Assembly: GCA_963829525.1 (NCBI GenBank)
Contig: CAWHIJ010000003.1
Span: forward strand, 1,696,001 to 1,760,000
Reading direction: 5' to 3'
Source of the DNA: an uncultured Actinomycetota bacterium
GTDB taxonomy: Bacteria > Actinomycetota > Actinomycetes > JAHEKZ01
DNA: 64,000 nucleotides
Shown piece by piece: positions 2,407 to 64,000 of this stretch (position 1 is its first letter; each line of letters begins with the position of its first letter). The position numbers and the translations under genes were made by a program. The notes beneath the pieces were generated by a model. It had not been told where the DNA came from, did not search any database, and saw only the letters and a program-made list of their open reading frames with translations.

Positions 2407-3579
2407 ATGCGACTGTCCCTGCTCCGCCGCTCGAGTCAGGTCACCGGACCTGAGCCACAAGGTGTGGCTCGCATGGACAAACGCACCAAAGACCTGACGA
2501 AGCGACTCAAGCCTGGCGAGATCGCAGTCATCGACCACCTGGACATCGATCGGGTGGCGGCAGAGGGTCTAGTCGCCTGCGAGCCGTCCGCAGTTGTCAA
2601 TGTCGCCGCCAGCATCAGTGGCCGTTACCCAAATCTTGGTCCCGAGATCCTCGTGGACGCCGGAATCCCACTTCTCGACGCCGTTGGCCCCGATGTCTTT
2701 GGCCGCATCAGCGACGGTGATCCGGTCGTACTCGATGGCAACCGGCTCCTGCACGACGGAGTGGTCGTTGCTGAGGGACAGCTGCTCGACGTGGAGACCG
2801 TTGAGAAGTCGATGGATGAGGCTCGAGCTGGTCTCGCCGTCCAGCTTGAGGCCTTCGCGAGCAACACGATGGAGTACCTGCGTCAGGAGCGCGACCTTCT
2901 TATCGACGGGGTCGGGGTTCCGGACATTGCGACCGAGATCGACGGGCGCCATGTGCTGATCGTGGTCCGGGGCTATCACTACAAGGAGGACCTGCAGACG
3001 CTGCGCCCCTACATCCGAGAGCATCGGCCTGTGCTGATCGGTGTCGACGGAGGCGCCGACGCCCTGCTTGAGATGGGTTATCGACCAGACCTGATCGTTG
3101 GCGATATGGACTCGGTGTCTGACGAGGCGCTGACTGCCGGGGCGGAGGTCGTGGTCCACGCCTATCGCGACGGACGCGCCCCTGGCCTTGACCGCGTGGA
3201 GTCGCTCGGTGTCGACCCGATCGTCTTCCCCGCCACCGGCACCAGTGAGGACGTGGCGATGCTTCTCGCAGACGACAAAGGTGCCAGCCTGATCGTCGCT
3301 GTGGGCAGTCACGTGACGTTGGTTGAATTCCTCGACAAAGGCCGTGCAGGGATGGCCAGCACTTTCCTCACCCGACTGCGCGTCGGCGGCAAGCTGATCG
3401 ATGCAAAAGGTGTCAGCCGCCTCTACCGCAGCCGCATCTCCACCGGACAGCTCCTCCTTCTGATCGCCGCAGGAATGGCTGCGCTCGTTGCCGCCATGGC
3501 GTCAACGACAGCTGGACGCAGCTTCTTTGACCTCGTTGGTTCCTGGTGGCATGACCTGGTGTTCTGGGTGACCGGGTGA
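2407..3579 (+). CDS. steA: Cell-division membrane protein SteA (thiamine pyrophosphokinase-like domain)
   Basis: IDHLDIDR, SISGRYPNLGP, VDGGADAL, PDLIVGDMDSV motifs, C-terminal TM; canonical recN-steA-steB synteny; ATG at 2407 chosen. Confidence 0.9.
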   Translation: MRLSLLRRSSQVTGPEPQGVARMDKRTKDLTKRLKPGEIAVIDHLDIDRVAAEGLVACEPSAVVNVAASISGRYPNLGPEILVDAGIPLLDAVGPDVFGRISDGDPVVLDGNRLLHDGVVVAEGQLLDVETVEKSMDEARAGLAVQLEAFASNTMEYLRQERDLLIDGVGVPDIATEIDGRHVLIVVRGYHYKEDLQTLRPYIREHRPVLIGVDGGADALLEMGYRPDLIVGDMDSVSDEALTAGAEVVVHAYRDGRAPGLDRVESLGVDPIVFPATGTSEDVAMLLADDKGASLIVAVGSHVTLVEFLDKGRAGMASTFLTRLRVGGKLIDAKGVSRLYRSRISTGQLLLLIAAGMAALVAAMASTTAGRSFFDLVGSWWHDLVFWVTG

Positions 3580-3619
3580 CCAGAATCCTCGTGCTTCGAC
3601 TTAATGAACGGACCGCCTC

Positions 3620-4537
3620 GTGATCGACTTTCGGTACCACATCGTCTCCATCGTGGCGATCTTCATGGCCCTCGCTGTTGGGATTGTCCTGGGGTCCGGA
3701 CCCCTCAAGGACGACATCAGTGGATTCCTCGAGGACCGAACCCAGCAGCTCGCCCAGGAGAAGGTCGATCTTCAGAGCCAAGTGTCGGCGCTGCGCCAGG
3801 AGATCGATTCGTCGGAGCAGTTCGCCGAGCTCTCCCAGCCCGTGCTCGTCGAGAATCTGCTGACCTCGCGCGTGACAACGGTTGTCGTCCTTCCCGATGC
3901 TGACGGCGACCAGGTCGACGCAGTCGAAGAAGTCGTGTCTGCCGCTGGCGGAACGGTCGGCGAACGCGTCACGATCGAGTCAGCTTGGAGTGATCCAGAG
4001 CAGAGCGAGATCTTGGGTCGAGTTGCCGAAGGCGTCGCGCGTGGCGGACGAGATGAAGACCCGTACCAACTGGCCAGCAAGGTATTGGCAGATGCGCTCC
4101 TGACCCCTGGCGGCCGTGCAGTCGGGGAACCTTCGCTCGACTCAGTCGCCGTTCTCGCGGCTTTCGAAAGCGAGGGGTTCATCTCAGCAGATGAAGAGGA
4201 GGTGATCCGGGGAGACACCGCCATCGTGATCGGACCAGCGGGTGTCGTTCCGAGTGCCGACCTGGCGCTCGTACCATTGTTCACAGCCCTCGATGACGTT
4301 GGTGTCGGAACTGTCGTGACTGCCCCGCTCGGAAGCGACCAGGCCGAAGGCGTCGTTGGTGTGCTACGTGGGTCAGACGCCGACGGCGTCGTGTCCTCAG
4401 AGGATCGGCTCGACACTGTCAATGGTGTGACGGTCACAGTCCTTGCGCTGGCCGAGCAGACCGCTGGAGGGGTCGGTCACTACGGCACTGGTGAGGGGTC
4501 AGACGGTCCTGCGCCTGATCCGCTCCCCAGAGGCTGA
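3620..4537 (+). CDS. steB: SteB / MctB-like (DUF3186, annotated 'copper transporter') membrane-anchored protein
   Basis: MIDFRYHIVSIVAIFMALAVGIVLG N-terminus, coiled coil, GHYG C-terminal motif; follows steA. Confidence 0.88.
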   Translation: MIDFRYHIVSIVAIFMALAVGIVLGSGPLKDDISGFLEDRTQQLAQEKVDLQSQVSALRQEIDSSEQFAELSQPVLVENLLTSRVTTVVVLPDADGDQVDAVEEVVSAAGGTVGERVTIESAWSDPEQSEILGRVAEGVARGGRDEDPYQLASKVLADALLTPGGRAVGEPSLDSVAVLAAFESEGFISADEEEVIRGDTAIVIGPAGVVPSADLALVPLFTALDDVGVGTVVTAPLGSDQAEGVVGVLRGSDADGVVSSEDRLDTVNGVTVTVLALAEQTAGGVGHYGTGEGSDGPAPDPLPRG

Positions 4538-4540
4538 CCC

Positions 4541-5371
4541 ATGATCGGTCGAGTGCTGAGCGTGACGTCGGCTGTTCTGGTGAGCAAACGGGTCTACGAT
4601 CAAATGTCCGACGCAGATGCGTCCGAGCGTTGGCAGCGCACCAACCATCGTGGCGAGACCGTCACCCTGGCGCAAGGCCCGGCTGTTTCGCTCGGATCCC
4701 TGGCTGGAATCGTCTTAGCACCCGGACTGCCCCCGTCGGTTCGGGCCGCGTCGACGCTGGCCGTTGGTGCGGCATCGGTGCTGGGGATGATCGACGACCT
4801 CACCGGCGCCACTGACGTCAAGGGCCTTCGGGGACACCTTGGCGCCCTGCGCAATGGCGAGGTCACAACGGGCACCGTCAAGCTGGTCGGCCTGGGGGTC
4901 ACCGGGCTCGTGACCGGGGCACTGGCCCGAAGCGGACGTGGTGGGCCAATCGATGCTGTACTCGCGGGAGCGGTGGTTGCTGGAGGTGCCAACCTGGCGA
5001 ACCTGTTCGACCTACGACCAGGGCGGGCCACCAAGATATTCCTCGTCGCGTCGGCCGGCCCGATCCTGGGCGGAGGGTCGACCAGGGCCATCCTGAGCGG
5101 TCCGGTGAGCGCGGCCGCAGCACTTCTGCCCGATGACCTCGCTGAGCGGTCGATGTTGGGCGACACCGGCGCGAATGCGCTCGGCGCTGCCTGGGGTATT
5201 GCGGTGGCAGCTTCATCGAGCCGTCGGGAGCTGCTGGTGACGGTGGCCGCCATGGTTGGGTTGACAGTGGTCAGCGAACGCGTCAGCTTTTCGCAGGTGA
5301 TCGAACGCACGCCGGTTCTGCGTGGGCTCGATGGCATCGGTCGCCGTCCGGGCCTCCCGGCCGATGACTGA
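4541..5371 (+). CDS. MraY/WecA-like polyprenyl-phosphate sugar-phosphate transferase family membrane protein
   Basis: Multi-TM; LGMIDDL, NLANLFDLRPG and MLGDTGAN resemble the three conserved PNPT loops. Confidence 0.65.
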   Translation: MIGRVLSVTSAVLVSKRVYDQMSDADASERWQRTNHRGETVTLAQGPAVSLGSLAGIVLAPGLPPSVRAASTLAVGAASVLGMIDDLTGATDVKGLRGHLGALRNGEVTTGTVKLVGLGVTGLVTGALARSGRGGPIDAVLAGAVVAGGANLANLFDLRPGRATKIFLVASAGPILGGGSTRAILSGPVSAAAALLPDDLAERSMLGDTGANALGAAWGIAVAASSSRRELLVTVAAMVGLTVVSERVSFSQVIERTPVLRGLDGIGRRPGLPADD

Positions 5372-54360: not shown

Positions 54361-54714
54361 ATGGCTGAGCGCTCGCTTCGGGGAACCCGTCTGGGTGCGA
54401 CGAGCTACGAGAACGATGAGGGTGTTGAGCCCGCGGCTCGCCTCGACGTCACGTATGACTGCCCTGAAGGTCACTCCTTCACGATGCCGTTCTCGGTGGA
54501 AGCCGATGTACCGGCTCGCTGGGAGTGCCGCGTGTGCGGTGCTGTTGCCATCGGTCGGGATGTGCCTCTCTCGGAAGAGAAAGCGATCAAGCCTTCCCGC
54601 ACCCACTGGGACATGCTGCTGGAGCGACGCTCTATCCCTGAACTCGAAGAGCTGCTCGAAGAGCGCCTAGAGCTGTTGCGGGCCTCCGGTGCTGCCGTCC
54701 GTCGCTCAGCCTAG
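54361..54714 (+). CDS. rbpA: RNA polymerase-binding protein RbpA
   Basis: LRGTRLGATSYE, C..H…C..C, RTHWDMLLERRSIPELEELL.ERL. Confidence 0.96.
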   Translation: MAERSLRGTRLGATSYENDEGVEPAARLDVTYDCPEGHSFTMPFSVEADVPARWECRVCGAVAIGRDVPLSEEKAIKPSRTHWDMLLERRSIPELEELLEERLELLRASGAAVRRSA

Positions 54715-55190
54715 GAGCGGTCGTCGAGATCTTCGCCCGGATTCTGCACGATCTCCCCGCGCACGACGCGTCCCCCGGTCGAGTCGTCCTGGACGACCTC
54801 ACCCGGCACGATGTCAGTACGGGTGAGCCGCCCACTGTCATCATCCCAGCGCAAGATGCTCAGGTTCCAAGACGCAAGACGGCGGGCGACTCGTTGTCCG
54901 ATCCAGACCCGCAGCAGGGCGCGGACTGGTGGCAGCAACAGAAGCAGCCCTACTACGTCCGACACGTAACCCGGCAGCAGCAACAGGACGCCGGCCGTCA
55001 TCAGGATCGCGCTGTCGGTGTTGCGCGGCCGCCGGCGCCACGCTGATCGCATCACGACGATGCCGAGAATGACTCCTGCGAGCAACAGCAGCGTCGCTGG
55101 GCCGAACCCAACCGCCTCGACCACCAGGGAGCCGACGTACAGCTCAAGGACAGGAATTGCGACGAAGAACAGCAGGAAGACGATAAGCAT
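54711..55190 (-). CDS. fxsA: FxsA family membrane protein
   Basis: P..E, GVLLLLPGYVSDVVGLLLLLPPVR; lnt-ppm1-fxsA-rbpA synteny; TAATG overlap. Confidence 0.85.
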   Translation of the reverse strand: MLIVFLLFFVAIPVLELYVGSLVVEAVGFGPATLLLLAGVILGIVVMRSAWRRRPRNTDSAILMTAGVLLLLPGYVSDVVGLLLLLPPVRALLRVWIGQRVARRLASWNLSILRWDDDSGRLTRTDIVPGEVVQDDSTGGRVVRGEIVQNPGEDLDDRS

Positions 55191-55930
55191 TAACCGCGAC
55201 CTCGTTGACTCACGTGGCCGGCGCGGCTCAGCACACCCCACTGCGTGACGCGCCAGAGTGCTTCGGCAACGATCGCCCCGCTCATCTTGCTGTCCCCCTG
55301 CTCGCGTTCGACGAATGTGATCGGTACCTCGACGATCCGCAGCCCAGCTGCTGCGGCACGTCGGGTCAGGTCGACCTGGAAGCAGTAGCCCTGCGAGGAG
55401 ACCGTGGACAGGTCCATCCGCTCGAGGGAACTGCGGCGATACGCGCGGTACCCGGCAGTGGCGTCGCGGACCCCGAGCCCGAGCATGATCTGGGTGTAGC
55501 GGTTTCCGCCTTGGGAAAGCCATTGCCGGTGGCGTGGCCAGTTCGCCACGCCTCCTCCGGGAACCCAGCGAGATCCGATGACCGCGTCGGCGTCCTGGAG
55601 GGCAACCAGCATCGCCGGCAGGTACTCGGGACGATGGGAGCCATCGGCATCCATCTCCACGAGCACGTCAAAGCCACGGCTCATTCCCCACCGAAAACCC
55701 GCCAGATATGCCGCACCGAGCCCATTCTTGGCGGTGCGGTGCAGAACTTGGATGTGGTCGTCACCTGACGCAAGCGAGTCGGCGAGATCGCCGGTGCCAT
55801 CGGGACTGTTGTCGTCGACGATGAGGATGTGCGCGTCGGGCGTGGCCGTTCGAACCCGCTGCACGATGGGCGGCAGTGAGTCCCGTTCGTTGTAGGTCGG
55901 GATGATGACCAGGACGTCGTCGTCGCTCAT
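55190..55930 (-). CDS. ppm1: Polyprenol monophosphomannose synthase (GT2)
   Basis: IIPTYNE, VDDNSPDGTG, EMDADGSH, GSRWVPGG; ATG at 55930. Confidence 0.93.
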   Translation of the reverse strand: MSDDDVLVIIPTYNERDSLPPIVQRVRTATPDAHILIVDDNSPDGTGDLADSLASGDDHIQVLHRTAKNGLGAAYLAGFRWGMSRGFDVLVEMDADGSHRPEYLPAMLVALQDADAVIGSRWVPGGGVANWPRHRQWLSQGGNRYTQIMLGLGVRDATAGYRAYRRSSLERMDLSTVSSQGYCFQVDLTRRAAAAGLRIVEVPITFVEREQGDSKMSGAIVAEALWRVTQWGVLSRAGHVSQRGRG

Positions 55931-57498
55931 GTTGCGATTCTGCCTCGTCGGCGCACGGCGGCCAGCACGACCGCACCGAGTCCCAAAAGGGAGAGGATCA
56001 ACTCGGGCCAAGCCCCCAAACGGGTAGCGAGCGTCTCGTCGGTACGAGCCACCACAGGCTCGACAACGACCTGCTGCACGAACTCGGGGGTCTTGGCCCG
56101 GACTGAGCCGTCGGGGGCGACGACGCCGCTGATGCCGCTGGTGGAGGCAACCAGGACGCTGCGGCCATGCTCCACCGCTCGGAGTCGGCTCATGGCCCAC
56201 TGCTGCTCAACCTGACCAGTGCGTCCATACGTGGCGTTGTTGGTCTGCACCGTGATCAACTCGCCCCCGCCGGCCACGGCATCACGGACGGCCGCGTCAT
56301 ACGAGACGTCGAAGCAAATGACATCGGCAACAGTCACCGGACCAAGGTCGAGCACCCCTGGTGCGTCACCAGCGACGAAGTCGCGCGGAATTCGGTCGAG
56401 TCGCGAGATGAACTTCTGGGCGATGGATCGGTACGGGACGTACTCGCCGAACGGCACCAAGTTCTGCTTGACGTACGACGCACCCGGTCCGGTGACTGGG
56501 TCCCAGACCGTGCCCTGGTTAGCCACCCGCTCCCCGCCGTCGACCTCTATGACCATTCCGACAAGCACCGGGACGCCCACATCCTTGACCGCAGCATCGA
56601 TAGCGGCAAACGCCTCGGCGTCCAGGGCCGGGTCGATGTCTGAGGCGTTCTCCGGCCAAATGACCACGTCAGGCGCAGCGACCCTGCCAGCTCTGACGTC
56701 ATTGGCAAGTTGGTGGGTAGCCTGCAGGTGAGCCGACAGCACCGCCTCGCGCTGTCCAAAGGCATCCATCCCGGTTCGCGGAACATTTCCCTGCACGATC
56801 GCGACGGTGACTTGACGCCCATTGGTTGTAAGCGGGATCGCGAGGCCGCTGAGCACGATGACAGCAGCGGCGCCAGCCGCGAGAGAAGCCCGAAGCACGC
56901 GTCTCCGAACGGCAGCCCTGACCGCCACAAGCACCAGAGCGCCCGTGAGCACGAGAAGGAAACCCAACAAGGGCACGCCACCCACCGAGACCCAGGCTGC
57001 GGTGGGGGCATCGGCCTGGGAATGGCCCAATCGGCCCCAGGGGAAGCCGCCGAACGGCACCCGGCCCCGAAGCGCCTCGACGCCGACCCACCAACACGCA
57101 ACCCAGAACGGCCATCCCGGTAGGCGCAGGAGCAGTGCGGCTCCGACTCCGAACAGCGCGGTGAAGGCCGCGGACATGCCCACCACCAGTAACCAGGCAT
57201 CGGGGCCGATGACCCGCAGCCACGGCGTCAGCAGGCCGAAGAAGACCAGTCCGAAGACGGACCCGAGGAGGGCGCCGCGGGGCACCGGGCGGCGGGCCCG
57301 CGTGCCGATTTCCACGGCGCCGAGCACGCCTGCCACGGCAAGGGGGGCTAACCACCACAGGTCGTAGGGGGGGAAGGCAAGCACCAAGACCCCGCCGGCC
57401 GCTGCCGATGCCAGAACGGCCGTCCAGAGGGGAACGGGTCGGACTGGATCCGGCTCAATGTCTTGAGCCGTGGGCAGTCCCTCGGCGACAGCACTCAC
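55927..57498 (-). CDS. lnt: Apolipoprotein N-acyltransferase
   Basis: GGFPW, VQGN, WPEN (Glu), KQNLVPFGEY (Lys), ICFD (Cys), TNNA. Confidence 0.95.
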   Translation of the reverse strand: MSAVAEGLPTAQDIEPDPVRPVPLWTAVLASAAAGGVLVLAFPPYDLWWLAPLAVAGVLGAVEIGTRARRPVPRGALLGSVFGLVFFGLLTPWLRVIGPDAWLLVVGMSAAFTALFGVGAALLLRLPGWPFWVACWWVGVEALRGRVPFGGFPWGRLGHSQADAPTAAWVSVGGVPLLGFLLVLTGALVLVAVRAAVRRRVLRASLAAGAAAVIVLSGLAIPLTTNGRQVTVAIVQGNVPRTGMDAFGQREAVLSAHLQATHQLANDVRAGRVAAPDVVIWPENASDIDPALDAEAFAAIDAAVKDVGVPVLVGMVIEVDGGERVANQGTVWDPVTGPGASYVKQNLVPFGEYVPYRSIAQKFISRLDRIPRDFVAGDAPGVLDLGPVTVADVICFDVSYDAAVRDAVAGGGELITVQTNNATYGRTGQVEQQWAMSRLRAVEHGRSVLVASTSGISGVVAPDGSVRAKTPEFVQQVVVEPVVARTDETLATRLGAWPELILSLLGLGAVVLAAVRRRGRIAT

Positions 57499-57528
57499 CC
57501 GATGACGGTAACCCGTGAGAAGCCTCGA

Positions 57529-57954
57529 TCACGAGTCGGACGTGTCGGGGGCTGCCGTGGCTGGCGGGACGACGATGGTGCCGATGGCAGAGACAGCCAG
57601 TTCTGGCTGGGCGAGCACCTCGGCTGCAGCCTCGCCGAGGTCTGGGCGACCTCGACTGACGACGTGGGCAGTGAACGTGAGCTCGCGGCTGCGCCGCCCC
57701 ACCCTGCTGACCGCCGCGGTCACCTCCAGGACGTCGCCTGCGCGCACGGGGGCGGTGAACTGGATGTCGGAGTAAGAGGCGAAGAGCCCCTCGTCGCCAT
57801 CGGTAACGATCATTAGGTCCGTGGCGACATCGCCAAAGAGCCCTAGTGTGTAGGCGCCGTCGACGAGGTTGCCTGCGTAGTGGGCGTGTGAGTACGGAAC
57901 ATACCGCCGATGGGTGACGCTCTTCCCCAACCTGATGTCGTCCGTGCTTGACAT
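57529..57954 (-). CDS. kal: 3-aminobutyryl-CoA ammonia-lyase (hotdog fold)
   Basis: AHYAGNLVDGA, FGDVAT, DGDEGLF, F.APV.AGD; in operon with kamDE/kdd. Confidence 0.88.
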   Translation of the reverse strand: MSSTDDIRLGKSVTHRRYVPYSHAHYAGNLVDGAYTLGLFGDVATDLMIVTDGDEGLFASYSDIQFTAPVRAGDVLEVTAAVSRVGRRSRELTFTAHVVSRGRPDLGEAAAEVLAQPELAVSAIGTIVVPPATAAPDTSDS

Positions 57955-58778
57955 CAGCGTGCTCCCGCCTTGTTGGTCGACTTCTTCTTGGCCCTGGTCT
58001 TCTTCTTGGCCTTTGCCCGACGAGTTCCTGCCGGTGTCGCACAGAGTCGGTGCGCCAGGTAGCTGGCGACCTCGCCGGGTGTCGTGCCCTTCACAAAAAT
58101 GCGGTCGACGCCCAGCTCGGAGGCCGCACCTTCATCGAAGCGCGGGCCCCCAACGATCAGGACCGGGGTGGTGCCCGTCGGATACGCCTCGCGAAACGCA
58201 GCCGACATTTGTGTGACGTTGTGCAGGTGCGCCTCTCGCTGCGTGACGACCTGGCTGACGAGGACGGCATCGGCCTTGAGGTTCTGTGCATGCTCCACCA
58301 GGTCTGGGACCGATACCTGCGCACCTAGGTTGTGGACCTCGAGACCGCTGTAGGCCTCCAGGCCCTTCTCCCCCGCCCAGCCCTTGATGTTCAAGATGGC
58401 GTCGATGCCGACGGTATGTGCATCGGTACCGATGCAGGCACCCATCACGACGAGCGGGCGCCGCAACGCGCGCTTGACCGCAGCGCTCACCTCTTTGGGA
58501 GTGAGCAGTGGAAACTCGCGTTCGATGACGACGACTTTGTTGAGATCGACCAAGTGACTGCATCGTCCGTAGACGACGAAGAAGGTGAAGTGCGGTCCCA
58601 TCTGCTTGGCATGCACCACCATCGCCGGTTCCAGCCCCATCTTGGCCGCCAGCTGGAGTGCTGCTCCCTCAGCCCGCTTGTCGTGGGCGATAGGCAGTGT
58701 GAACGAGACCTGAACCTGGCCGTCACCGGTGGCATCACCGTACGGTCGGATGATGTGCGACTCCTCTCGCTTGCTCAT
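57954..58778 (-). CDS. kamE: Lysine 5,6-aminomutase beta subunit (B12-binding)
   Basis: PYGD..GDG.VQVSFTLP, GTDAHTVGIDAILNIKG (DxHxxG plus PLP Lys), LVSQVVTQ. Confidence 0.93.
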   Translation of the reverse strand: MSKREESHIIRPYGDATGDGQVQVSFTLPIAHDKRAEGAALQLAAKMGLEPAMVVHAKQMGPHFTFFVVYGRCSHLVDLNKVVVIEREFPLLTPKEVSAAVKRALRRPLVVMGACIGTDAHTVGIDAILNIKGWAGEKGLEAYSGLEVHNLGAQVSVPDLVEHAQNLKADAVLVSQVVTQREAHLHNVTQMSAAFREAYPTGTTPVLIVGGPRFDEGAASELGVDRIFVKGTTPGEVASYLAHRLCATPAGTRRAKAKKKTRAKKKSTNKAGAR

Positions 58779-60367
58779 CAAGCTTGCCCCTTCGCGTCGG
58801 CGAAGTACTCATCGAGTAGCTCGCTGGCCGGGTTGTAGTACGCACTGGAGTGCCTGGCGACGCCATCGAGTCCGCGACCAGCGTCAGCTGGCCGCTTCAT
58901 CAGCCCAAACGTTCCGTCGGCGATCGCGTTCAGCAGCTGGTCGTCCACGATGCGTTCGAGCAGCTCGATGGCCTCACCGAGCACCTGGTGGGAGCGCTGC
59001 ACGATGAAGCCGTCATGGGCTGGAACGAAGTCCTCGGCGAGCCCACGGGTCGACTCCATCACATAGCGAACGTTCTGCAAGGCAAGGTCACGATCCGACA
59101 GCCACGGAGTGTGGACGGCCTCGGTCAACATGCCGACCAGCAGGATGTCCTGGGCCGTCATAGAGCCAACCAGGTTGAAGAACCCGTTAAGCAGGTAGCC
59201 ACCGAACACGTCGCCGGTCATGTGCTTGGTGGGTGGCATCCACTTCAAAGGTGCGTTCGGAAAGAGCTCTCGGGCCAGCAACGCGTGCGCCAGTTCGAGT
59301 CGAAAGGACTCCGGGACCGTGGGATTGATCTCGAAGGCGTGACCAAGGCCGAGCTGTGCATCGGCCAGCCCAGCCTCTTTTCCGAAGAACTCGTTGAGCA
59401 GCTGACTGACTGTGACGGTGTGCGCCGCCTCGACTCCATCTGCCGTTGTGAGGTAGTTGTCTTCGCCGGTGTTGATGATGATCCCGGCCCGTGCATGGAC
59501 CTGCCGACTGAAGCGCTGGTCGACGAAGGTGCGAATCGGGTTGATGTCGCGAAAAAGGATCCCGTACATCGAGTCATTGAGCATCATGTCAAGTCGTTCA
59601 AGGCCAGCCAGCGTCGCGATCTCAGGCATACAGAGGCCCGACGCGTAGTTGGTCAGTCGCACGTAGCGTCCGAGTTCGGCTGAGACATCGTCCAGGGCTG
59701 CACGCATCAGACGGAAGTTCTCTTGGGTCGCGTACGTGCCTGCGTAGCCTTCTCGGGTCGGCCCTTCCGGAACGAAGTCGAGCAGCGACTGTCCCGTTGA
59801 TCGAATCACAGCGACGATGTCAGCGCCTTCACGCGCGGCTGCCTGAGCCTGCGGCATGTCCTCGTAGATGTCACCGGTGGCAACGATCAGGTAGATCCAA
59901 GGTTTTGGCGGATCGCCATACTTCTTGGTGAATCGGTCGCGCGTCTTTCGATTGTTATCGATCTTGCGTAGGCCAGCCGCCGCCGCTTTACGCGATGCGG
60001 TTCGGGCGCGGCTGGCCTCTCGACCTTCCGGCGCATGGAAGATGACTCCTCCCGCGGCGGCCTTCTGCGCAAGCTCGGTGAGGTCGGCGTACTCGCCGGA
60101 CGCCAGTGCATGCCAGACCGGGAGGGAGACGCCGTGCTCGAGACCCACGTCTTGTCTGACCGCGTCGACAACGTGGTTTACCCAGGGCTCGCCCTCGGCG
60201 TCAGCGCCGGAAAGACCAGCCAGACGCAGTACCGCCCGCTCGACAGAAACCGTGGTGTGTGTCTTGGCAAGAGTCACGATCGGCCTGCCGGCCTTTCGCG
60301 CGAGGCTGCGTGCCTTGCGGACCACCGTCGGATCGAGTTCGAGCTTTCCCTTGCCCCGTCGCGTCAC
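58778..60367 (-). CDS. kamD: Lysine 5,6-aminomutase alpha subunit
   Basis: HTTVSVERAVLRL, IYLIVATGDIYED, IRSTGQSLLD, NYASGLCMPE, INTGEDNY, MPPTKHMTG; GTG at 60367. Confidence 0.94.
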   Translation of the reverse strand: MTRRGKGKLELDPTVVRKARSLARKAGRPIVTLAKTHTTVSVERAVLRLAGLSGADAEGEPWVNHVVDAVRQDVGLEHGVSLPVWHALASGEYADLTELAQKAAAGGVIFHAPEGREASRARTASRKAAAAGLRKIDNNRKTRDRFTKKYGDPPKPWIYLIVATGDIYEDMPQAQAAAREGADIVAVIRSTGQSLLDFVPEGPTREGYAGTYATQENFRLMRAALDDVSAELGRYVRLTNYASGLCMPEIATLAGLERLDMMLNDSMYGILFRDINPIRTFVDQRFSRQVHARAGIIINTGEDNYLTTADGVEAAHTVTVSQLLNEFFGKEAGLADAQLGLGHAFEINPTVPESFRLELAHALLARELFPNAPLKWMPPTKHMTGDVFGGYLLNGFFNLVGSMTAQDILLVGMLTEAVHTPWLSDRDLALQNVRYVMESTRGLAEDFVPAHDGFIVQRSHQVLGEAIELLERIVDDQLLNAIADGTFGLMKRPADAGRGLDGVARHSSAYYNPASELLDEYFADAKGQA

Positions 60368-61983
60368 GGACCACTCCCAGGTTTGATCGACTGAACAACG
60401 TCCCTGGCGTAGACCGTACGACCAGCGACGACCGTCTGCAGGCAGACGGGGTCGGTTGTGCCAGGTTCGAGTGACGGCAGACCTGGAACCCCTGCCCGCG
60501 GATCGGTCGACCAAGCGGAAACCCGATCGTCAGGCGTCTCGACGACGAGGTCGTCGCACTGCCAGACAGCCAGGTTCGCCGGCTCGCCCGGCGCAACCAC
60601 GCCACCACCGCGACCGGCTGCCCGCCAGCCACCCCTGGTGTGTGCAGTGAATGCGGCTCTGGCCGTCAGTCGTTCAGCCGGCTGGTGATGGTGAACCGCG
60701 GCTCGAATTGCCTGCCACGGGGCGAGCGGTGTCACCGGGGCGTCGGAGCCGAAGGCCATCGGGATGCCGGCGTCCTGCAGGGAGGCGAAAGGATTGAGTG
60801 TCGCGGCTCGACCGGAACCAAGCCGCTCGGAGTACATGCCGGAATCTCCACCCCACAAGAAGTCGAAGACTGGCTGCACGCTGGCGATCACGCCGAGCCG
60901 GGCAAGAAGCATCCGGGCCTGCTCGTCGACCATCTCGACATGCTCCAGACGGTGTTGGGCGGCCCGGATGACGTCGACGCCGACAGCGTCGGCGGCTTCG
61001 GCGAAGCCGCTGACGACCAGATCCATCGCACCGTCCCCGATCACGTGGTAACCCGCTTGAACACCGGCTGTCGAACAGGCAATGACGTGATCGCGGATCG
61101 TGGCCACCGAGGTGTAGGCGGCCCCAAAGGTGTCAGAGTCGGCGTACCGCTCACGCAGCAACGCGGTGCGGGAGCCGATGGCCCCGTCGACAAAATGATC
61201 TCCGGCAGCGCCGCGGGCGCCAAGCGACAGAGCGACGTCTGGCCCTCCACCCTCGCCCCAGTAGCCGACAACCTCGACACCCGATTCAGGGCCAACGGTT
61301 CCGAGCAAGTCGGTGAAGTCGTCGGCGCTGGAGATCTCCGGACCGCCGAGCTCGTGCACCATGCCGATCCCCAGCGACGCTGCGTGCTGCAGGCAAGCAC
61401 GCTGTGCAGCACGACGCTGGGAAGGGGTGACCGAGTCGAGTGCAATTCGACGGACCACATGGTGTGCCTCCTGCGACAGCCAGCCGTCAGCTGAGAACCC
61501 GGCAGCAGAGGACACTTCGGGCGCCAGGGCCAGCAGCGCCGATGAGGCAACGCACGAGTGCACGTCAACGCGCGACAGGTAGACCACTCCGCCGTATGAG
61601 GCCCTGTCAACCTCATCTCGTCTCGGCGGTCGTGCTTCTGGCCACCGGGTCTCGTCCCAGCCGTGGCCGAGGACCACCGCGCCACGCACGCTTCTCGCGT
61701 GTATCTCCAGACGGTGCAGCGCATCTTCGAGAGTCTTGGTGCCCGAGAGGTCGAGCCCGGACAGGTTCAAGCCCGTAGAAGTCGTGTGGACGTGGGCGTC
61801 GACGAATGCCGGGGCGAGGAGTGCCCCATCGAGCTCGACGACCGCATCAACGCTGTCGGCGTGGACGCGGGCAGCCTCTTCTGACCCAACCCAGACAATG
61901 AGGTCGTCCTGGGTCACCAGGGCGCTCGCGAAGGGGTCGACTGAGCTGTACACCGGTCCCCCGCGGTACAGCGTGGTGGTCAC
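60364..61983 (-). CDS. Metal-dependent amidohydrolase (Amidohydro_3/YtcJ-like)
   Basis: PAFVDAHVH, GWDE, DGAIGSRTA, YHVIGD, RLEH, FGSDAPV; GTGA overlaps with both neighbours. Confidence 0.9.
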   Translation of the reverse strand: MTTTLYRGGPVYSSVDPFASALVTQDDLIVWVGSEEAARVHADSVDAVVELDGALLAPAFVDAHVHTTSTGLNLSGLDLSGTKTLEDALHRLEIHARSVRGAVVLGHGWDETRWPEARPPRRDEVDRASYGGVVYLSRVDVHSCVASSALLALAPEVSSAAGFSADGWLSQEAHHVVRRIALDSVTPSQRRAAQRACLQHAASLGIGMVHELGGPEISSADDFTDLLGTVGPESGVEVVGYWGEGGGPDVALSLGARGAAGDHFVDGAIGSRTALLRERYADSDTFGAAYTSVATIRDHVIACSTAGVQAGYHVIGDGAMDLVVSGFAEAADAVGVDVIRAAQHRLEHVEMVDEQARMLLARLGVIASVQPVFDFLWGGDSGMYSERLGSGRAATLNPFASLQDAGIPMAFGSDAPVTPLAPWQAIRAAVHHHQPAERLTARAAFTAHTRGGWRAAGRGGGVVAPGEPANLAVWQCDDLVVETPDDRVSAWSTDPRAGVPGLPSLEPGTTDPVCLQTVVAGRTVYARDVVQSIKPGSGP

Positions 61984-63053
61984 CCCACACTCTCTTCGTG
62001 GGCCAGACGCCGTTCGAAGAGATCCCGAACGCCAGTCGATCGACGCAGAAGGTCGAAGGCGTACTCGGCATGGCCCGGCGTGTACCCGTTCCCGATCAGC
62101 ATGGTCGTGTCGGAGGCGAGCCCTTCGGCTCCGAGAGCGGCTGCGGTGAAGGACGTTGCCATCGAGAAGAAGATCACCGTGCCGCCGTCGGGCGACGTTG
62201 CCAAAATCGCGCCGTGCTCGCATCCGGGGACGTCGACGCAGACGACGGTGATATCTGCAGGAGCTCCGAGGGATTGTTCGACAGCCGCGGACAAAGCCAC
62301 TGGATCGCGTGCGTCTGCGATCGCAACGACGTCGGCTAGTGAAACCTCTCGCAGCAGGAGCGCCTCTGAGTCGATCGGGACGATGCCCACCGACTTGGTT
62401 GCACCACTGTCGCGGGCCGCCGCCAGCGAAAGTGAGCCACTCTTTCCGGCCCCACCGATCACCGCAACGGTCGGCGCCCGACCACGCTCCACGTACTGGC
62501 GCACCACGCGCGCAGTCAGGGCCGGCGCACCCGCGACATCCATGACCGCCATGGCAAGTGTCGGCGGGAGGTCTTCCGGTACCGAGGCTGCGATCGTACG
62601 GCCGAACAAGATTGCGTACCCCTCGCACGGCACCTGCTCACTGAGGCCGGTCCACCGTACGAGGCCGTCGGTGATGACGAGCGGCGTCAGGCTGAGTGAG
62701 ACCAATGTGGTGACTTGCTGCCCCACCTCCACGTCCAAGGTGGCCTCCGGGCCGACCTCGTCGACCAATCCGATGAGCATGCCACCCGACCCTGTGACGG
62801 GGTTCTGCATCTTGCCTCGGTCGGCGATGATCTGGAGTACCTCAGCCCTGACTGCGTCACCGTCGCCGTCGTGCTTGGTGATGAGCTGCCGGAAGGATGC
62901 GGCATCGAGGTTGAGCACTGAGACCGCGATCCGAATCTCGTCCGGCCAGATCTCGGGGCTGGCATTGACTTGTCGGGCCGCCTGCGGCAGGACCCCGCGT
63001 GGCTCAATGACACGGTGTAGTCCGACGGGGGACGATTGAGTCGTTCGGGTCAC
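61980..63053 (-). CDS. kdd: L-erythro-3,5-diaminohexanoate dehydrogenase
   Basis: GLHRVIEP.GVLPQ.A, LNLDAASF, RGKMQNPVTGSGGML, DVAGAPA, FSMATSF, IGNGY..GHA. Confidence 0.92.
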   Translation of the reverse strand: MTRTTQSSPVGLHRVIEPRGVLPQAARQVNASPEIWPDEIRIAVSVLNLDAASFRQLITKHDGDGDAVRAEVLQIIADRGKMQNPVTGSGGMLIGLVDEVGPEATLDVEVGQQVTTLVSLSLTPLVITDGLVRWTGLSEQVPCEGYAILFGRTIAASVPEDLPPTLAMAVMDVAGAPALTARVVRQYVERGRAPTVAVIGGAGKSGSLSLAAARDSGATKSVGIVPIDSEALLLREVSLADVVAIADARDPVALSAAVEQSLGAPADITVVCVDVPGCEHGAILATSPDGGTVIFFSMATSFTAAALGAEGLASDTTMLIGNGYTPGHAEYAFDLLRRSTGVRDLFERRLAHEESVG

Positions 63054-63225
63054 CGGGAGATCTTGTCAGCAGCCCAGGGGCAATCGCCAGCACCCGTGAG
63101 GGGGAACTCCGCAACAACATGGCAACAAACCGCTATCTGATGGACAAGTTGCTGTTTGTCATTGATTCCGCAGGAAGATCTCCGTACGCTCGCGATACTG
63201 CGATAACGGCGTTATAGGAGAGCCC

Positions 63226-64000
63226 GTGAGCCATCCACTGCCCCAGCCGTACGACTACCGACAGCGCGAAGTGCACGAGCCTGACTGGACTCGCTTGCCT
63301 GGCTGGAGTCAGGTCACGACGGCCGATTGGGAGAACGCGCAGTGGCAACGCTCTCACTGCGTCAAGAACATCAAGCAGCTCCGTGGTGTGATGGGCGATC
63401 TGCTCACCGATGACTTCTACGACGACCTCGAGCTCGACCAGGCCGAGCGCGCCACGATGTCAATGCTGATCCCGCCGCAAATGGTCAACACGATGGTTCC
63501 TGACTCACATGACACCGGAACTCCCACGGCACTGACCTTCACTGAAGCGTTTCTCGCCGATCCCATCCGTCGGTACATGCTTCCAGTGTTCAGTGACAGG
63601 CGAACCGATTGGCCATCCCACCCCTACTCCAGTCGCGACTCCCTGCACGAGCACGACATGTGGCGTGCCGAGGGCCTGACACACCGCTACCCCACGAAGG
63701 TGCTCGCAGAGGTGCTATCTACGTGTCCTCAGTACTGCGGTCACTGCACCCGAATGGACCTCGTCGGCAACTCGACCCCTACTGTGAAGAAGCTCAAGCT
63801 CGAGCTGAAGCCAGTCGACCGTATGCAGCAGCATCTCGACTATTTGCGCGCCACGCCTTCGGTTCGTGATGTCGTTGTCTCTGGTGGCGACGTCGGCAAC
63901 ATGCCATGGAAGAACCTCGAGGCCTACGTCGACCAGATCCTCGACGTCGAGAACATCCGGGACATCCGGTTGGCGACCAAGGCCTTGATGGGTCTTCCTC
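63226..64000 (+). CDS. kamA: Lysine 2,3-aminomutase family radical SAM protein (3' end outside window; absent from the ORF track)
   Basis: AGGAG RBS then GTG 63226: MSHPLPQPYDY…WQRSHCVKN…HRYPTKVLAEVLSTCPQYCGHCTR (CxxxCxxC)…DVVVSGGD; open to the window end. Confidence 0.9.
   Translation, partial: MSHPLPQPYDYRQREVHEPDWTRLPGWSQVTTADWENAQWQRSHCVKNIKQLRGVMGDLLTDDFYDDLELDQAERATMSMLIPPQMVNTMVPDSHDTGTPTALTFTEAFLADPIRRYMLPVFSDRRTDWPSHPYSSRDSLHEHDMWRAEGLTHRYPTKVLAEVLSTCPQYCGHCTRMDLVGNSTPTVKKLKLELKPVDRMQQHLDYLRATPSVRDVVVSGGDVGNMPWKNLEAYVDQILDVENIRDIRLATKALMGLP

Follow-up and report, generated by a model that had tools for sequence, protein, structure and literature searches.

A 64,000-nucleotide stretch from an uncultured Actinomycetota bacterium (GenBank assembly GCA_963829525.1, contig CAWHIJ010000003.1, positions 1,696,001–1,760,000; the whole stretch is hereafter termed the window) ends in a locus, at positions 57529–64000, that carries genes of the fermentation-type beta-lysine route (a kamA-like gene, kdd, kamD, kamE and kal) along with an amidohydrolase gene set between kdd and kamD. 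The locus raises the question of whether lysine is degraded here by a variant pathway that dispenses with the cleavage enzyme Kce and has the amidohydrolase in its place, as a preliminary description of the sequence had proposed, or by the established route and, in the latter case, what the amidohydrolase contributes. Judged from sequence comparison, the locus is best explained as ordinary in its chemistry, with the embedded amidohydrolase a predicted N-epsilon-acyl-lysine deacylase feeding the route. A canonical beta-lysine route with an unlinked Kce-like enzyme and a dispensable acyl-lysine deacylase as feeder is, in our estimate, reasonably probable, and the amidohydrolase most likely replaces no pathway step and would hydrolyse N-epsilon-acyl-L-lysine.

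Under this scheme, the acylase orthologue would act as a feeder ahead of KamA by releasing free L-lysine from a predicted N-epsilon-acyl-L-lysine substrate (for example, N-epsilon-acetyl-lysine), and the KamA-like enzyme would convert lysine to beta-lysine. The vitamin B12- and pyridoxal phosphate-dependent KamDE would then form 3,5-diaminohexanoate and Kdd would oxidize it to 3-keto-5-aminohexanoate, the presumptive substrate from which the Kce-like enzyme, using acetyl-CoA, would generate acetoacetate and 3-aminobutyryl-CoA, the latter being split by Kal into crotonyl-CoA and ammonia. The chemistry of the beta-lysine route is established for these enzyme families, as set out in the available text of two earlier studies (PMC3149608, PMC3994512).

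A Kce-like gene elsewhere in the genome

As the preliminary description had observed, neither a kce gene nor the accessory genes of the aminomutases are in view, and on checking neither the window nor the 13 kb past kamA contained a BKACE or MutL-type gene. The genome as a whole (G000; 2.96 Mb, three contigs) possesses two BKACE (PF05853) loci. One of these is a Kce-like gene at C3:2903724–2904559 (L002:1221–2056), 1.15 Mb from the operon, with a product that is 94–98% identical, in all three frames, to an intact orthologue of 279 amino acids (aa) from a congener (P0001). Among solved structures, P0001 matches the authentic Cloacimonas Kce best (2Y7D, 208 bits, against 141 bits for the next BKACE structure), and among NCBIfam models it scores highest with Lys_ferment_KCE (275.8 bits, against 204.6 bits for the next model).

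A set of 401 genomes of the class, including G000, was searched for kdd, the Kce-like gene, the amidohydrolase, and the MutL-family gene. Matches to kdd were present in 150 genomes, 139 of them over the cut-off, and removal of a single weak match (G181, 5.7e-4) left 149 genomes as kdd-positive. At a threshold of E ≤ 1e-40 the Kce-like gene was detected in 168 genomes, consisting of 144 with kdd and 24 of the 252 without, while 228 genomes had neither gene and five had kdd only (four of these are 68–89% complete; the fifth, G125, is 98% complete). Kinship among the genomes means that these counts describe a pattern and do not constitute a test. The tallies include the unpublished genomes G025, G033, G042, G050, G054, G308, and G372, on which no conclusion hangs (G054 and G372 also enter the list of kdd/amidohydrolase adjacencies given below). 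The Kce-like gene is usually distant from kdd, and adjacency was noticed, by comparing coordinates by eye, only in G046 (L066:12374–13174) and G194 (L067:9012–9815), in which it directly follows kal on the same strand.

Several observations weigh against a complete canonical route. The curated KCE cut-off of 382 bits is reached by none of the 401 genomes (best, 289.7 bits; most listed Kce-like homologues, about 255–290 bits), so that the assignment as Kce is based on best-hit rank, co-occurrence, and two adjacencies, not on an equivalog call. The KamA-like protein, the candidate lysine 2,3-aminomutase, is under both relevant curated cut-offs (TIGR00238 KamA family, 158.7 bits against 199.2; lys_2_3_AblA, 143.7 bits against 525.4), though its translation contains a CxxxCxxC motif and its gene lies divergent beside kdd in 20 of 20 loci (L080–L099). 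Further, the Kce-like gene as deposited for G000 is split over three frames, and the near-identical contigs that speak for an unbroken gene have a low depth (2–10) and could derive either from the source sample or from different strains.

The broken reading frame could mean that the pathway is defunct in the source organism, with the Kce-like gene a recent pseudogene and the operon either a remnant or in use for another purpose. Relative to the congener there are two single-base insertions (C3:2904327 and C3:2904000), which are outside of long homopolymers and are not mutually compensating. The locus was compared with near-identical contigs from four public runs, for which stretches of L002:1100–2200 that lacked contig cover in some runs were not taken as absence; the extra letter was missing from contigs of runs X1, X2, and X5 at L002 place 1497 (C3:2904000) and from those of X2 and X3 at place 1825 (C3:2904328). 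The two frameshifts are probably an assembly error, though the low depth and the possible inclusion of the source sample among the runs leave this short of proof. With the high identity to the congener preserved in all three frames, all five minus-strand operon genes intact, and similar frame breaks elsewhere in the assembly, a broken pathway appears very unlikely.

The second BKACE gene (C3:1390770–1391639) was rejected as a candidate for Kce, as its product shares no more than 28% identity with the kdd-linked type (P0001). It is accompanied by a 3-hydroxyacyl-CoA dehydrogenase, a thioesterase-like gene, and an IclR regulator, a cluster that we presume to be of the carnitine-type catabolism kind. 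In this cluster (L001:397–2454; G000:C3:1389660–1391717), the middle stretch of the BKACE gene is also out of frame, and the adjoining dehydrogenase is split into two open reading frames (ORFs; 930–1493 and 397–975); these breaks are probably further frameshifts in the G000 assembly, and their recurrence in different genes suggests consensus indel errors.

If Kce were dispensed with and the amidohydrolase took over the C–C cleavage step, the lack of a BKACE gene near the operon and the frameshifts in the distant one would be accounted for. Such a variant pathway is largely refuted, and we consider it extremely improbable, as 144 of the 149 kdd-positive genomes carry the Kce-like gene, which adjoins kal in two, and the letters behind the frameshifts do not occur in the public contigs. 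The amidohydrolase itself is missing at E ≤ 1e-60 from 42 kdd-positive genomes, occurs in genomes without the lysine genes, and is absent from four loci in which kdd-kamD-kamE-kal are contiguous. From general enzymology, we know of no way in which a metal amidohydrolase could make the CoA thioester needed by Kal, which would be a further obstacle to such a variant.

The amidohydrolase is an orthologue of epsilon-lysine acylases

The identity of the amidohydrolase was approached through the epsilon-lysine acylases of Streptomyces, which belong to the YtcJ-like family and of which SgELA is specific for N-epsilon-acetyl-L-lysine and binds metal through H76, H78, H330, H365, and D431, according to the available text of the original report (Haeger et al. 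2023, PMC10699109). The SgELA gene was located via the published primers: the gene-specific part of the reverse primer matched 28 contigs of the S. griseus clade, and in S. griseus NCTC13033 (L126) the corresponding part of the forward primer was found 1.6 kb upstream, enclosing an ORF of 548 aa with exactly the named residues. The window amidohydrolase, for which the NCBIfam scan returned no equivalog match, is 55% identical to this ORF over 531 aa (517 bits). Upstream of the S. griseus gene are the same Lrp regulator (64% identity) and acyl-CoA dehydrogenase (67% identity) that accompany the block in the window.

The residues H64, H66, H313, H348, and D414 of the window enzyme align with the five SgELA ligands and, along with D262, are conserved without exception in 42 of 42 orthologues. 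In the Protein Data Bank, searched by sequence and by profile, only the Pyrococcus structures 3ICJ and 3IGH match the protein over nearly its full length (profile E-values, 2.9e-60 and 1.5e-55, respectively), and the invariant Asp262 aligns with both SgELA Asp279 and the Lys of 3IGH. The metal ligands described earlier as intact are thus borne out for four His and one Asp, while the position of the 3IGH Lys is occupied by an invariant Asp. This Asp fits the statement, in the available text of a review, that the epsilon-lysine acylases do not have the carboxylated lysine of related enzymes (PMC11511702). Among the roles previously suggested for the amidohydrolase, orthology to the acylases therefore favours deacylation of an N-acyl-lysine, while C–C cleavage and the opening of a lactam find no support.

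Two features count against a simple transfer of function from SgELA. The proposed oxyanion-hole residue, His177, aligns with Ser164 in a variable loop, a mismatch that was given low weight because, in the available account, His177 was assigned from proteins that are about 21% identical (PMC10699109). Also, all characterized epsilon-lysine acylases are from Streptomyces and are >80% identical to one another, as far as the accessible portion of the review states (PMC11511702), and on account of the 55% identity the window enzyme may differ from SgELA in specificity.

These differences leave space for a kdd-linked enzyme with a pathway-specific substrate, which could be N-epsilon-acetyl-beta-lysine (with the resulting beta-lysine passed to KamDE) or a cyclized (3-keto-5-aminohexanoate lactam) or acylated intermediate. 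N-epsilon-acetyl-beta-lysine is a compatible solute of other microbes and, were this correct, the block would serve to degrade a beta-lysine derivative and not just lysine. The location of the gene between kdd and kamD, instead of beside kamA, the divergence from SgELA with the loss of His177, and the restriction of assayed members to Streptomyces in the available texts (PMC10699109, PMC11511702) would all be compatible. A quick maximum-likelihood tree of 43 hand-chosen rows, out of the 210 orthologues plus SgELA, points the other way: the sequences cluster by taxonomic family, those from genomes with kdd are mixed among those from genomes without it (SgELA being one of the latter) with at least four changes of kdd state, and an enzyme from a kdd-positive genome is the sister of the SgELA/Streptomyces clade, such that no separate kdd-linked subfamily occurs in this sample of 43 rows. 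With the ligands and D262 also invariant across both sets, we regard a pathway-specific substrate as quite unlikely and retain an N-epsilon-acyl-L-lysine as the predicted one.

Distribution and synteny of the amidohydrolase

Of the 401 genomes, 210 carry an orthologue of the amidohydrolase (E ≤ 1e-60, about 50% identity or more), among them every one of the 20 genomes in the order to which the window belongs. In family f29 there is a single orthologue per genome (22 of 22 genomes). The status of the enzyme as a conserved member of the locus holds up, with an orthologue in 107 of the 149 kdd-positive genomes; for the 89 genomes with listed coordinates for both genes, kdd and the amidohydrolase are on the same contig in 85 and within 2.5 kb of each other in 81. 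The preliminary description would have been undermined by a kce elsewhere in most genomes combined with an absence of conservation of the amidohydrolase; the former was found, and the latter was not.

Arrangements were explored in 40 loci mapped by tblastn, which were hand-picked by category from the tops of the lists and illustrate arrangements, not frequencies. The recurring kdd-positive block has the order M24 peptidase, acyl-CoA dehydrogenase, Lrp, kamA, and, diverging from kamA, kdd, amidohydrolase, kamD, kamE, kal, and lnt. The piece of it that extends from Lrp to lnt is a widely conserved part of the actinobacterial chromosome. In kdd-negative genomes the order is M24 peptidase, acyl-CoA dehydrogenase, (Lrp), amidohydrolase, and lnt, or simply Lrp and amidohydrolase, with examples between Lrp/acyl-CoA dehydrogenase/M24 and lnt in L070–L077 and beside Lrp in L068, L069, L077, and L126; lnt borders the block whether or not kdd is present. 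Conversely, kdd-kamD-kamE-kal are contiguous without the amidohydrolase in L088, L089, L091, and L092, and L066 is likewise without it.

The slot between kdd and kamD is also variable in content. In L090 (7910–9486; G143) it holds a decayed amidohydrolase with N- and C-terminal parts in different frames, the HxH motif replaced, and later ligands changed, which has the appearance of an acylase gene on its way out of the operon. The decayed copy and the same-slot synteny suggest that an ancestral block held both modules, from which lineages would then have lost either the lysine genes or the acylase. In L082 (11144–15653; G334) and L083 (10951–15493; G098), genes of 813–820 aa and 689–693 aa are located between kdd and the amidohydrolase; judged by their sequence, they are putatively phosphoketolase and phosphate acetyltransferase (pta).

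Such patterns bear on the possibility that the amidohydrolase is unrelated to lysine catabolism, an old resident of the neighbourhood between Lrp and lnt with a role of its own, around which the lysine genes are arranged. The facts that favour it largely coincide with those that tell against the proposed feeder: 103 of the 252 kdd-negative genomes carry an orthologue, which in the loci mapped keeps its place beside Lrp or between Lrp/acyl-CoA dehydrogenase/M24 and lnt; at E ≤ 1e-60, 42 of the 149 kdd-positive genomes lack one; the copy in the slot of L090 is decayed; and unrelated genes, with types that include phosphoketolase plus pta, a kinase, and a sigma factor, separate the amidohydrolase from kdd or kamD in L081–L083, L087, and L098. 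Together, the kdd-negative occurrences, absences, and insertions imply that the place in the operon may be historical and not functional, and the loci without the gene, the insertions, and the decay in L090 show that the enzyme cannot be an obligatory pathway step. However, the characterized relatives act specifically on a lysine derivative, in so far as their published descriptions are available, which makes a chance position within a lysine operon unlikely; the gene also adjoins kdd in 81 of 89 genomes and in the window is overlap-coupled on both sides. An unrelated resident is therefore unlikely, though it is the most credible of the alternatives, and a dispensable feeder of the lysine route is preferred.

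A candidate reactivase

The rest of the genome had been named in the preliminary description as the place to look for both Kce and an aminomutase reactivase; beside the Kce-like gene 1.15 Mb away, the search returned for the latter only a candidate. This is a MutL-family gene (PF13941, 465 bits), present in one copy at C3:833140–834462. We take PF13941 MutL to be of the chaperone/reactivase type tied to glutamate mutase, and the protein is proposed by analogy as a candidate reactivase for KamDE. In the class, the gene occurs in 100 of 401 genomes, 93 of which are kdd-positive, and 56 of the 149 kdd-positive genomes are without it. Coordinates place it about 5 kb from kdd in three genomes of one genus (G230, G289, and G366). 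In G230, the gene is between lnt and kal (L095, about 3421–4740; G230:C1:878421–879740). The available text of the paper on the variant lysine pathway (PMC3149608) makes no mention of reactivases, kamB, kamC, or Actinobacteria. No further lysine genes were recognized around the Kce-like and MutL genes with a crude gene caller based on GC3, which is unreliable there, and no conclusion is drawn from this.

Gene organization and surroundings

Gene calls over 57529–64000 place kdd, the amidohydrolase, kamD, kamE, and kal in this order on the minus strand, with the kamA-like gene divergent (Table 1). The order and the junctions agree with those reported in the preliminary description: kdd/amidohydrolase and amidohydrolase/kamD overlap by 4 nt (GTGA), and kamD/kamE and kamE/kal have 1 nt in common (TGATG). 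Start/stop overlaps are frequent among co-directional genes in high-GC bacteria; those between kdd and kal denote tight packing and not function. The earlier identification of kdd, kamD, kamE, and kal was correct, as all four exceed their NCBIfam equivalog cut-offs; the Pfam scan gave no match for the kdd product. Co-transcription of the five genes from kdd to kal, and regulation by the neighbouring Lrp, are predicted. An Rfam scan of 55000–64000 for a lysine or cobalamin riboswitch gave nothing beyond a weak chrB-b match (22.7 bits against 36.5), the divergent intergenic region contained no Rfam family at E ≤ 1, and a repeat scan of the same region gave only short repeats of chance size.

Table 1. 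Coordinates (window numbering) and family assignments of the lysine genes and adjoining features
Feature	Position	Strand	Description
lnt, apolipoprotein N-acyltransferase	55927–57498	minus	TIGR00546 272 bits (cut-off 133); 30 nt downstream of kal, same strand
kal	57529–57954	minus	3-aminobutyryl-CoA ammonia lyase; 141 aa; NF052388 179.3 bits (cut-off 160); PF03061 hot-dog fold
kamE	57954–58778	minus	Lysine 5,6-aminomutase; NF052385 335.4 bits (cut-off 280); PF16554 and PF02310
kamD	58778–60367	minus	Lysine 5,6-aminomutase; NF052384 694.9 bits (cut-off 600); PF09043 800 bits
Amidohydro_3 / YtcJ-like metal hydrolase	60364–61983	minus	539 aa; PF07969 245.7 bits; orthologue of Streptomyces epsilon-lysine acylase (EC 3.5.1.17)
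kdd, L-erythro-3,5-diaminohexanoate dehydrogenase	61980–63053	minus	357 aa; NF052381 249.1 bits (cut-off 200)
Divergent intergenic region, kdd/kamA-like	63054–63225		172 nt; putative promoter region, from the divergent arrangement
kamA-like radical-SAM aminomutase, 5' part	63226–64000	plus	Runs off the window; whole gene 485 aa (L007:6226–7683)

Beyond kamA are a CAP-domain gene, the Lrp/AsnC regulator, an acyl-CoA dehydrogenase, an M24 peptidase, a 5'-3' exonuclease, a DUF222/HNH gene, and a Ski2-type helicase, and on the far side of lnt are FxsA, RbpA, an Atg22-like transporter of the major facilitator superfamily, and a GDPD esterase. The block itself contains no CoA-transferase or butyrate genes, though the downstream pathway steps were not searched for. 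The conserved actinobacterial core that surrounds the block is composed of rbpA, fxsA, and lnt on one side (window 54361–57498) and, on the opposite side (L007:10378–17221), of the M24 peptidase, 5'-3' exonuclease, and Ski2-type helicase, and resembles the regions Rv2050–Rv2053c and Rv2089c–Rv2092c of Mycobacterium tuberculosis. The DUF222/HNH endonuclease gene that separates the exonuclease from the helicase (L007:13020–14384; G000:C3:1766020–1767384) is of a type often repeated across actinobacterial genomes.

Comparison with known systems

The enzyme families found here, with KamA and the unlinked Kce as candidate assignments, are the same as those of lysine fermentation (KamA, KamDE, Kdd, Kce, and Kal) in Fusobacterium nucleatum, Clostridium, and 'Candidatus Cloacamonas acidaminovorans'. 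The locus differs from the clusters of those organisms in that kce is unlinked in most of the genomes compared, the Kce-like and KamA-like proteins score under curated cut-offs, and kdd and kamD are separated by an orthologue of acyl-lysine deacylases. Several Actinobacteria have been reported to carry the lysine pathway, according to the available text of Vital et al. 2014 (PMC3994512), and the occurrence of kdd over its cut-off in 139 of 401 genomes indicates that a fermentation-type route from lysine to acetyl-CoA is widespread in the Actinomycetia. Since no genome in the set reaches the KCE cut-off, the Kce step would probably be missed or left unnamed by curated annotation in this class. 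The locus also cautions against taking a pathway that appears incomplete in a single window for a new variant, with both the Kce-like gene and the reactivase candidate unlinked here.

The amidohydrolase can be set beside two groups of related enzymes. Pyrococcus 3ICJ and 3IGH are uncharacterized metal-dependent hydrolases with a Lys where the window family has Asp262, while SgELA, SmELA, ScELA, and SamELA (EC 3.5.1.17; YtcJ-like / MEROPS M38) share with the window enzyme the five ligands and the lack of a carboxylated lysine. In the available texts of the two sources, these acylases are treated as biocatalysts and their physiological role is not addressed (PMC10699109, PMC11511702), and a limited literature search found no mention of an acylase orthologue embedded in a kdd-kamDE-kal operon. 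The conserved place of the enzyme in the operon suggests that in the cell these acylases salvage N-epsilon-acylated lysine for catabolism. Whether the operon represents the first physiological role for a bacterial epsilon-lysine acylase, as the point of entry of N-epsilon-acyl-lysine to the acetyl-CoA route in the Actinomycetia, is in our assessment evenly balanced. The SgELA locus shares its Lrp and acyl-CoA dehydrogenase neighbours with the block in the window, but where the Streptomyces acylase loci examined are without a lysine catabolic operon, the window enzyme is located inside of one.

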